From NCBI GenBank assembly GCA_964474085.1, contig CAYYRJ010000001.1, positions 91,631 to 155,630 of the forward strand: a stretch of DNA of 64,000 bases. Direction: 5' to 3'. Both the position numbers and the translations under genes were made by a program. The notes beneath the pieces are model-generated. The model was not told the origin of the DNA and ran no database searches. It saw only the letters and a list, made by a program, of their open reading frames with translations. Numbering within the stretch: the first letter of the stretch is position 1; the number at the start of each line of letters is the position of its first letter. Shown piece after piece: positions 50,738 to 51,572 of the stretch. This DNA is from an uncultured Planctomycetales bacterium. Its GTDB lineage: Bacteria > Omnitrophota > Gorgyraeia > Zapsychrales > JANLHA01.

Positions 50738-50890
50738 TTTGCAATTGAAAGTTAAGAGCGCTTGTGATATTGTAAACATTCGTCTTTAGGCATCTTTTTG
50801 TGATTTTATACCTGTGGGGCCTTCGTTTCGGGCCTATAGCTCAGTCTCCGCCGGAGGCGGATCCGCCTTTGGCGGAGGTTAGAATGTTTC

Positions 50891-50964
50891 GGGCCTATAG
50901 CTCAGTCGGTTAGAGCAGGGGACTCATAATCCCTTGGTCCCTGGTTCGAGTCCAGGTGGGCCCA
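50891..50964 (+). tRNA. tRNA with CAT anticodon, most similar to tRNA-Ile2 (lysidine) rather than elongator Met
   Basis: gggcctatagctcagtcggttagagcaggggactCATaatcccttggtccctggttcgagtccaggtgggccca. The cloverleaf folds, and there is close overall similarity to E. coli ileX. Confidence 0.75.
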
Positions 50965-51058
50965 GTAAAAAAATAGCTTTAAGTTTTAAGGACTCATAGC
51001 TTGAGTACCATAAATCTTTTATGGCACTTCGCTATGAGTAAGGAATTTCTAGATTTAA

Positions 51059-51132
51059 GGACTCATAGCTCAGCTGGTTAGAGCGCTGCCCTCACATGGC
51101 AGAGGTCGGAGGTTCGAGCCCCCCTGAGTCCA
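51059..51132 (+). tRNA. tRNA-Val (CAC)
   Basis: ggactcatagctcagctggttagagcgctgccctCACatggcagaggtcggaggttcgagcccccctgagtcca. The cloverleaf folds, with one A:C mismatch in the T stem. Confidence 0.7.
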
Positions 51133-51139
51133 TATTTAT

Positions 51140-51424
51140 ATGCGAGAAGACATTTCGTATGTTTATGTTTTGCGAAGTTTAAAGAATAAGAAAAGATATA
51201 TCGGAAGTACTCGATCAACGCCAGAAGAGAGATTGAAACAACATCAATATGGATCTAATAAATGGACGAGTCAAAATGGTCCGTTTGTGTTAGTTTATTC
51301 TGAAGAATTTTCAACATTTTCTGAGGCAAGGAAACGAGAGAATTTTTTAAAAAGTGGGGTAGGGCGAAAGTTTTTAGACGAAATTTTAAAAAATATAAAT
51401 AACTCAGCTTCAGCCATAGGCTGA
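51140..51424 (+). CDS. GIY-YIG nuclease family protein (small)
   Basis: YVYVLRSLKNKKRYIGSTRSTPEERLKQH...REN. Starts 8 nt after tRNA-Val and is followed by a duplicated tRNA-Val 3' half. Confidence 0.7.
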   Translation: MREDISYVYVLRSLKNKKRYIGSTRSTPEERLKQHQYGSNKWTSQNGPFVLVYSEEFSTFSEARKRENFLKSGVGRKFLDEILKNINNSASAIG

Positions 51425-51445
51425 TCCGCCTAAGGCGGAGGTTAT

Positions 51446-51532
51446 AGCGCTGCCCTCACATGGCAGAGGTCGGAGGTTTCAGCCTGAGGCTGATCAGCCT
51501 TTGGCTGACGATAGCCCCCCTGAGTCCATATT
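51446..51532 (+). pseudogene. Partial duplicate of the tRNA-Val 3' half, interrupted by a 34-nt hairpin insert (attachment-site-like remnant)
   Basis: agcgctgccctcacatggcagaggtcggaggtt-[tcagcctgaggctgatcagcctttggctgacgat]-agcccccctgagtccatattt repeats 51082-51138, including the post-tRNA tattt. Confidence 0.55.
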
Positions 51533-51572
51533 TGAAATACCATTTCATACTTAAAAGAAGGGTAAAGCCAAA

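Follow-up and report, generated by a model that had tools for sequence, protein, structure and literature searches.

A tRNA-CAT/tRNA-Val locus of an Omnitrophota genome, with a single-domain GIY-YIG gene and hairpin-broken tRNA copies, probably records invasion by minimal selfish cassettes

SsnA of Neisseria meningitidis is a 94-aa single-domain GIY-YIG nuclease (cd10448) that binds NTS, the hairpin repeat flanking its own gene, only as single-stranded DNA (ssDNA), cuts a few nucleotides upstream of it and is inactive on double-stranded DNA (dsDNA) and RNA (Chenal et al., Nat Commun 2025, PMC11893778). Homologues of SsnA have hairpin variants of their own, and the NTS-ssnA-NTS layout was described as insertion sequence (IS)-like by these authors, whose paper nowhere mentions tRNA (PMC11893778). 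A GIY-YIG gene that does lie in a tRNA cluster is segB of phage T4, which encodes a homing endonuclease that drives the inheritance of this region (PMC2330249). Here we describe a 64-kb stretch of an Omnitrophota genome (contig CAYYRJ010000001.1; hereafter, the window) in which an open reading frame (ORF) for a 94-aa GIY-YIG protein lies beside a tRNA with anticodon CAT (tRNA-CAT) and a tRNA-Val, among truncated copies of both. Our analysis suggests that this tRNA pair has probably been invaded, and probably repeatedly, by a large family of minimal selfish cassettes. The parts of such a cassette are a GIY-YIG gene of ~80 aa, a complete adjoining tRNA and a truncated or disabled second copy of that tRNA that carries the hairpins of the family. 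The anatomy of this proposal is well supported and its mechanism is moderately supported.

The locus contains two intact tRNAs, three truncated tRNA copies and the one 94-aa ORF (all coordinates are positions in the window; loci of relatives are labelled L001 and so on). ARAGORN placed the intact tRNAs at 50891-50964(+) (tRNA-CAT, called as Met and possibly Ile2; Rfam tRNA, 71.8 bits) and at 51059-51132(+) (tRNA-Val(CAC), the functional copy adjoining the nuclease gene; Rfam, 65 bits), and the single-domain GIY-YIG ORF follows at 51140-51424(+) (Pfam PF01541, E=5e-17). Upstream, 5 nt of flank and nt 1-17 of tRNA-CAT are present as a 5' pseudo-copy at 50825-50846(+), with 22/22 identity to 50886-50907. 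Between nt 17 and 18 this copy is interrupted by a twin hairpin (hairpin 1, 50847-50876, TCCGCC-GGA-GGCGGA + TCCGCC-TTT-GGCGGA), and it then resumes with a 7-nt match to nt 18-24 (GGTTAGA, 50877-50883(+)), which is followed by AT and by the flank and body of the intact tRNA-CAT. This arrangement of pseudo-tRNA and hairpin is an ORF-less 'solo' remnant. The second pseudo-copy has flank and nt 1-12 of tRNA-Val (50985-51001(+), 17/17 identical to 51054-51070) and lies within a wider repeat of 20 nt (50982-51001 versus 51051-70, 95%). Its end, ACTCATAGC, pairs with GCTATGAGT in a long imperfect hairpin at 50992-51039 (DNA fold, -13.2 kcal/mol, z=-6.6), which is not a hairpin of the family and is probably the decayed end of an element.

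The third pseudo-copy starts within the ORF, as a stub of nt 7-17 of tRNA-Val recognised by repeat comparison (ATAaCTCAGCT, one mismatch, 51399-51409(+)). Twin hairpin 2 (51410-51439, TCAGCC-ATA-GGCTGA + TCCGCC-TAA-GGCGGA) separates this stub, between nt 17 and 18, from a segment that runs from nt 18 to ~55 and covers the D arm, the anticodon arm and the start of the T arm (51440-51478(+), 38/39 identical to 51076-51114). Twin hairpin 3 (51479-51508, TCAGCC-TGA-GGCTGA + TCAGCC-TTT-GGCTGA) lies in the T-loop after GGTT, and the copy closes with CGAT, the tRNA-Val 3' end AGCCCCCCTGAGTCCA and the 5-nt flank TATTT (51509-51533(+)). Within this last piece, nt 58-76 plus 5 nt of flank are repeated at 51513-51533, with 21/21 identity to 51117-51137. 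All three twin hairpins, which have no assigned strand, were located by motif search and DNA folding (hairpin 1, -12.9 kcal/mol, z=-4.1; hairpin 2, -11.3 kcal/mol, z=-5.3; hairpin 3, z=-3.9). The ORF runs on into the pseudo-tRNA and hairpin 2, which supply its last ~10 codons and its TGA stop. The window is thus a derivative form, ordered tRNA-Val, ORF, stub, hairpin and 3' pseudo-Val, with two ORF-less remnants upstream, and it records at least two or three events: the solo 5' copy of tRNA-CAT, the decayed 5' stump of tRNA-Val and the 3' copy of tRNA-Val with the ORF.

An earlier note on this DNA had reported duplicated tRNA fragments at the locus, and these are real, as all of the repeats that it described were recovered by self-comparison. 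Several details have changed. The motif gatccgccNNNggcggaggtta does occur twice, at 50860-50881 and 51423-51444 rather than at 50866-50888 and 51428-51450; instead of bracketing the whole unit, as had been proposed, it belongs to one of three family twin-hairpin copies, each inside a dead tRNA copy. The ORF adjoins tRNA-Val with a gap of 7 nt, not 8. The downstream 3' copy of tRNA-Val is split by hairpin sequence as stated, although it begins at 51399 (nt 7) inside the end of the ORF and holds two inserts, not one. What had been read as a hairpin-rich 44-nt insert is the 30-nt twin hairpin at 50847-50876 plus tRNA-CAT nt 18-24 and AT. Hence, the three 'inserts' noted earlier are a single repeated unit of 30 nt, a twin of 15-nt palindromes (TCMGCC-N3-GGCKGA). 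Chance does not account for these repeats: the 15-mer TCMGCCNNNGGCKGA occurs six times, as three adjacent pairs, at this locus only, and shuffled sequences gave 0.00. An assembly artefact can be ruled out because L002, an independent contig from a metagenome-assembled genome (MAG), has the same pseudo-tRNA-Val with both twin hairpins and is 97% identical to the window over 477 nt.

The ORF encodes a single GIY-YIG domain and little else. Pfam GIY-YIG covers residues 6-72 of 94, no further domain was detected, and the core conserved among homologues is ~80 aa long. Residues Y9, Y20, R31, H35 and E67 are invariant in 32 sequences, and the spacing of Y9, Y20 and E67 equals that of Y6, Y17 and E64 in SsnA. 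The AlphaFold2 model is a single GIY-YIG fold (pLDDT 88) that matches UPF0213 and Slx1. Beyond residue ~83 the protein is a translation of pseudo-tRNA and hairpin sequence and differs among strains; likewise, C-terminal tails of homologues such as SASAEGGSASGGG are translated hairpins, and one N-terminal extension is translated tRNA. PADLOC matches were marginal, and membership in a defence system was dropped as a candidate.

The combination of hairpin and GIY-YIG protein, for which the earlier note had proposed a search in other genomes, recurs at tRNA genes of many bacteria. A scan of one genome per GTDB species gave 354 relatives, of which the best 80 loci were examined (86 ORF copies, 416 kb), and a profile search found 2,780 clusters (50% identity) at E<=1e-10. 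Annotated protein relatives are from Omnitrophota and Patescibacteria. By record title, the hosts of the loci are Omnitrophota, many Patescibacteria lineages, Dehalococcoidia, Elusimicrobia, Bacteroidota and others, with the caution that some MAG labels may be unreliable. The hairpin motif lies within 200 nt upstream of the ORF in 69/86 copies, and an intact tRNA on the same strand abuts the ORF in ~64/86 (Asn in 25, Val in 12 and Lys in 11, with Ile, Ala, Pro and others also seen). The abutting tRNA is mostly 0-30 nt downstream of the ORF and is upstream in a minority that includes the window, L001, L012, L017, L057, L062 and L064. In the best 80 loci, hairpin density is 3.03/kb near ORFs versus 0.05/kb elsewhere, and nearly all perfect 6-3-6 hairpins in the 416 kb have stems TCCGCC, TCAGCC, CCAGCC or CCCGCC. 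The flank that bears the hairpin is a copy of the adjacent tRNA, in most members of its 5' rather than its 3' part. Hairpins are inserted in this copy after nt 8, 12, 17, 28/29, 36/37 (all tRNA-Lys), 45, 55/56 or 63/64, and the base 5' of the insert is always T. Several hairpin units can occur within one pseudo-tRNA (L047, L050, L034). Tandem arrays of pseudo-tRNA, hairpin and ORF in L030, L047, L059 and L073 fit repeated invasion. Other repeated units were observed at L015 (3344-3640; two 3' pseudo-Lys copies with different acceptor-stem alleles) and at L034 (2800-3000; triplicated hairpin blocks), and suggest either repeated events or unequal crossing-over. The recurrence of this package at tRNA genes in many uncultured bacteria makes it look like a very small selfish element, and of the two options in the earlier note the 'miniature tRNA-targeting element' is hence the better one.

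Six loci (L003, L004, L011, L015, L040 and L048) preserve both sides of the cassette and reveal its full layout, tRNA(1..x) / hairpin / tRNA(x+1..y) / ORF / intact tRNA / tRNA(z..x) / hairpin / tRNA(x+1..76). The two hairpins of one locus differ at 0-4 of 30 positions and have nearly identical loops, while the mean difference between loci is 6.9. This likeness indicates a direct repeat, of roughly 7 nt plus the hairpin plus 10 nt, around the ORF and the complete tRNA. The cassette of ORF and complete tRNA splits the resident tRNA at x, so that the resident gene is split or displaced and the cassette brings its replacement. One-sided forms may have arisen by loss of the repeat beside the intact tRNA through recombination between tRNA repeats, which would yield either pseudo-5' half, hairpin, ORF and tRNA or, as in the window, tRNA, ORF, hairpin and pseudo-3' half. 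At L017 a duplicated 33-nt flank has 4/33 mismatches between its copies and the tRNA part is 60/60 identical, a contrast that fits two copies of different origin.

Occupied and empty versions of the window's locus both exist, with the downstream 242-aa gene as the synteny anchor for the comparison of related Omnitrophota. In these the order is tRNA-CAT, 6-9 nt, tRNA-Val and the anchor gene, and L088 and L085 have this uninterrupted pair without fragments, which bears out the insertion footprint at tRNA genes described in the earlier note. L081, the closest relative (76% aa identity of the anchor gene), has no ORF, and a 5' stump of another tRNA-Val allele (GGGTGCA...) lies upstream of its live GGACTCA... 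gene. L001, whose ORF is 77% identical, has the order tRNA-CAT, tRNA-Val, ORF, hairpin and nt 18-76 of tRNA-CAT, so that its displaced copy is tRNA-CAT and not tRNA-Val. The locus is thus polymorphic: the window, L001 and L002 are occupied, L088 and L085 are clean and L081 has the stump alone. Two further observations concern this region in other Omnitrophota. In L082 (1990-2450), pseudo-tRNA-Val pieces are broken in the D-loop and variable region by non-family inserts of ~45-100 nt that share cctgctttccttaaa...ttttgttctaga, and a 3' tRNA-Val fragment follows the intact gene; these inserts may represent a separate family or be what lost cassettes have left behind. A conserved element resembling the twin hairpin, CCCGCC-GAA-GGCGAG/CTCGCC-ATT-GGCGG, lies ~100 nt upstream of tRNA-CAT, on the far side of the promoter region, at L084 (2060-2095), L089, L090 and L083; several of the Omnitrophota that have it lack the ORF at this locus.

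Across the family the hairpin has the consensus YCMGCC-N3-GGCKGR, with a 6-bp stem and a 3-nt loop, and usually occurs as the 30-nt twin. At stem positions 3/13 we found C:G in 153 cases and A:T in 107, with mixed combinations at background level. A compensated swap separates the window (TCAGCC-ATA-GGCTGA) from L002 (TCCGCC-AAA-GGCGGA). Covariation and the compensated swap indicate that the pairing of the stem is maintained. There were 201 perfect hairpins versus 37 with one mismatch, and G.T and A.C mismatches were equally frequent, at 10 each. This lack of an excess of G.T over A.C argues for a structure at the DNA level and not for a sense-strand RNA helix; judged from its sequence, the hairpin appears to behave as a DNA palindrome. 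Rfam (E<=1) matched only the two tRNAs over 50600-51700, with no other family and no self-splicing ribozyme. A function of the hairpin in RNA was hence set aside as the principal explanation, as there is neither an Rfam family nor a G.T excess, and a group I intron with a homing endonuclease was rejected because there is no ribozyme match and the ORF lies outside the intact tRNA. The twin is a quasi-palindrome that is alike on both strands and folds either as two short hairpins or as one long one. We also considered reading a strand orientation from the loop order, purine-rich and then pyrimidine-rich, and rejected it since this order is invariant under reverse complementation.

Twin hairpins were also observed outside the cassettes. 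At L015 (4770-4799) a twin (CCAGCC.../TCCGCC...) interrupts the Gly/Phe-rich linker of a DnaJ gene (3912-5012, minus strand) without breaking the frame and encodes SAQGGPASGW there, and this case indicates that a protein-coding gene can receive and tolerate the 30-nt unit. Fifteen twin hairpins, mostly intergenic, were found in IMG/VR viral contigs (L092-L106) without a GIY-YIG relative or tRNA nearby; their left flanks are T-rich and their right flanks A-rich, and several lie directly upstream of a Shine-Dalgarno sequence and ATG. The GIY-YIG ORF family itself was not found in IMG/VR viral contigs, and a phage vector for the cassette was dropped for this reason.

The Ssn family is, with moderate support from these comparisons, the closest known system, and the tRNA-linked ORFs would be Ssn-like, hairpin-associated single-domain GIY-YIG proteins in a setting, the tRNA gene, that is new for them. 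Both groups comprise single-domain proteins of ~80-95 aa without a DNA-binding domain and with the same spacing of the catalytic Tyr, Tyr and Glu, and in both the gene lies between conserved hairpin palindromes that vary with the protein lineage, in an IS-like hairpin-gene-hairpin layout. Indeed, the window contains a second GIY-YIG gene, of canonical SsnA type (28720-29010, 96 aa), accompanied by an exact match to the Neisseria NTS consensus (GTCATTCCCGCGAAAGCGGGAATCC, 29012-29036(-)), by a variant hairpin (ATCCCTGC-GAA-GCAGGGAT, ~28682-28700(+)) and by GGGAATGACAG-like half-repeats (29040-29075). The NTS on one side and the variant hairpin on the other indicate that the hairpin-ssnA-hairpin layout exists in an Omnitrophota genome. 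The only match of the SRM pattern (HGTCWY...YYVSBRH...WNVSBRG...RNCYNB) in the window, at 29010-29037(-), lies beside this gene. A profile of the tRNA-linked family aligned with this SsnA-type ORF with an hhalign probability of 96.5% and 34% identity over 68 columns, pairwise tblastn between the two genes gave E=8e-4, and the nearest solved relatives of both proteins are UPF0213 proteins. A more distant branch, L083 (1490-1930), encodes a GIY-YIG protein 36% identical to the window's ORF and lies at tRNA-CAT, in the order 5' pseudo-copy, D-loop twin hairpin, ORF and intact tRNA. The hairpins of L083 have another sequence and are longer (CCCCGAC...GTCGGGG, CTCCGAC...GTCGGAG), which suggests that protein and hairpin vary together. 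There are also differences from Ssn. The hairpin described here is the twin YCMGCC-N3-GGCKGR, falls outside the SRM consensus and lacks an oriented GTC flank; it is confined to dead tRNA copies beside the gene rather than dispersed in hundreds; the gene is fused to the side of a functional tRNA, and the resident one is split or displaced by it; and the hosts centre on Patescibacteria, Omnitrophota and Chloroflexota, whereas those of Ssn centre on Pseudomonadati. The activity, established for SsnA, is only predicted here.

By analogy with SsnA, we infer that the nuclease recognises its hairpin in ssDNA, which heavily transcribed tRNA genes, and also replication, might supply, and nicks it a few nucleotides 5' of the hairpin. 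As the twin is alike on both strands, nicks would be possible on either side. The putative nick zone would coincide with the point at which tRNA-derived sequence stops and the cassette starts, 3-13 nt from the foot of the hairpin. Host recombination could then mend the breaks with the conserved tRNA sequence as portable homology, and this repair would either duplicate the cassette or move it into the same tRNA gene of other genomes, while the tRNA that the cassette carries would keep the host viable. A fixed cutting offset was rejected, given the range of 3-13 nt, and this distance serves only as a rough match to the 'few nt upstream' of SsnA. We also dropped an RNA model in which the pseudo-tRNA arms, as guide-scaffold-guide, would steer the nuclease to the tRNA gene; its geometry alone was in favour, and an 80-aa domain and the lack of an RNA signal were against.

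Several observations weigh against this proposal. Homology to the tRNA ends anywhere between 3 and 13 nt from the hairpin, also among loci of a single tRNA type, a spread for which erosion is an equally possible cause. At 12-60 nt, the homology arms are short for RecA. A hydrolytic GIY-YIG enzyme cannot join DNA, which leaves all of the joining to unspecified host repair, and the proposal does not account for the first entry of the hairpin into a tRNA copy. Identity to the window's SsnA-type protein is just 34%, and a search of the window with the SRM pattern and the NTS consensus gave no match at 50800-51600. In L042 and L074 a full-length tRNA disabled by hairpins stands beside an intact copy, and there is no split tRNA. 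Finally, the DnaJ gene and the 15 viral-contig sites show that twin hairpins also occur away from any ORF of the family.

An alternative, which we consider unlikely, is that the ORF is a classical free-standing homing endonuclease resembling T4 SegB, which would cut dsDNA in the intact tRNA gene and have its cassette copied by break repair, with the hairpins as passive inserts that destroy the target or the homology in the displaced copy. The two systems share a GIY-YIG gene among tRNA genes, polymorphism for its presence and a presumed spread by break repair with co-conversion of tRNAs; weak PHROG and NCBIfam matches annotate the ORF as a homing endonuclease, and both the empty sites and the tRNA-derived arms around the ORF are what homing requires. 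However, SegB is a multi-domain, site-specific dsDNA enzyme of a phage, and its locus has no tRNA duplication, replacement tRNA or signature hairpins (PMC2330249). Domain searches of the 94-aa protein found nothing beyond GIY-YIG, and hence no C-terminal DNA-binding module of the Seg type; a catalytic core of ~80 aa is poorly equipped to read a dsDNA site. The intact tRNA within the cassette would, moreover, stay a target. Passive disruption would not call for a perfectly paired, covarying palindrome conserved across phyla, and a passive insert would not change along with the protein lineage, as the hairpin does at L083.

It is quite improbable, in our view, that the twin hairpin is an independent palindrome, similar to REP elements or miniature inverted-repeat transposable elements, that is spread by some other host or phage activity and piles up in dead DNA, with an indirect link to the ORF. 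Copies without an ORF, namely those in the DnaJ linker and at the mostly intergenic IMG/VR sites and the window's own at tRNA-CAT, would be expected under this explanation, as would several units in one pseudo-tRNA. Similarities to REP/RAYT, IS200/IS605 and Rickettsia palindromic elements are apparent: short GC-rich hairpins flank a small nuclease gene, recognition is presumably of ssDNA, and the hairpin unit can occur in frame in a protein gene. REP/RAYT and IS200/IS605 nonetheless rely on an HUH (Y1) tyrosine transposase, as opposed to the hydrolytic GIY-YIG enzyme, the 15-30-nt unit and the tRNA-gene niche seen here. The hairpins are enriched 60-fold beside the ORFs and are nearly absent from the remaining ~337 kb sampled, genic and intergenic alike, the two around one cassette are copies of each other, and the distant ORF clade of L083 has different hairpins of its own at the same place. 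The Ssn precedent also couples this type of protein with flanking hairpins.

Equally improbable is that the module is domesticated and benefits the host, as an Ssn-like limiter of recombination or transformation at tRNA loci or through a tRNA-like transcript with the hairpin that serves as a regulator or decoy. In its favour, SsnA modulates the natural transformation of DNA flanked by NTS, the ORF is placed for co-transcription with the tRNA, and parts of the pseudo-tRNAs are often 100% identical to the live gene. Against this, the distribution is patchy with clean sites in relatives, there are tandem re-invasions and decayed remnants, neither an Rfam family nor the G.U bias expected of a selected RNA helix is present, and the place of the hairpin relative to the ORF varies, being mostly 5' although 3' in the window.

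The eroded stump of an integrase island in tRNA-Val, with the classic att footprint that the earlier note had seen here, is very improbable: as in tyrosine-integrase islands and prophages, an intact tRNA that restores the interrupted gene lies at one junction and a partial direct repeat, here the tRNA 3' segment, at the other, as attL and attR would, but this repeat is broken by two 30-nt hairpin units of the family, most family members repeat the 5' part of the tRNA, and the reading is contradicted because the 94-aa ORF is the only cargo between the intact tRNA-Val and its repeat, no recombinase occurs between or beside the repeats here or in related loci, and the same minimal, ORF-only architecture is the norm in 80 independent, unrelated loci.

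We found no published description of a tRNA-nested GIY-YIG and hairpin architecture in searches on GIY-YIG with tRNA, the candidate phyla radiation (CPR) and pseudo-tRNA, in which coverage of the literature was not exhaustive. It is conceivable, though we hold it only tentatively, that these loci represent an unrecognised class of minimal mobile element, composed of a gene for a hairpin-directed ssDNA nuclease and a complete 'rescue' tRNA, whose own 30-nt palindrome would split or disable the resident copy of this essential tRNA. As a separate observation on structured RNAs in this region, a match to bacterial class A RNase P RNA (157 bits) was noted at 52714-53094, a short way downstream, where it overlaps the 3' end of an RNase H-like ORF (52301-52780); the corresponding matches in L082 and L084 span 506-585 nt versus a 367-nt model, pointing to large insertions in those genes.

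In summary, we provide evidence that a single-domain GIY-YIG gene, a complete tRNA and hairpin-bearing tRNA copies form a recurrent package at tRNA genes. If the proposed mechanism holds, Ssn-like hairpin-directed nucleases would have a second large clade, of 2,780 clusters and with a recognition hairpin that is new and very short, which is of direct interest for ssDNA tools. The role of Ssn-type nucleases outside Neisseria was left open by the 2025 Ssn work; in the genomes described here, they would drive tiny tRNA-colonising cassettes with a replacement tRNA. If this is true, the 'rescue' tRNA element would amount to a cleave-and-rescue, or addiction, design of natural origin, spread over Patescibacteria, Omnitrophota, Chloroflexota and others, and the 15/30-nt hairpin would be an insertable unit small enough to land in frame in proteins. 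Such cassettes would also account for a common nuisance in the annotation of CPR and Omnitrophota genomes, in which fragments of tRNAs occur, contigs break at tRNA loci and ORFs annotated as 'GIY-YIG family protein' have odd tails of Gly, Ser and Ala. Our results suggest that tRNA genes of streamlined genomes undergo horizontal replacement.

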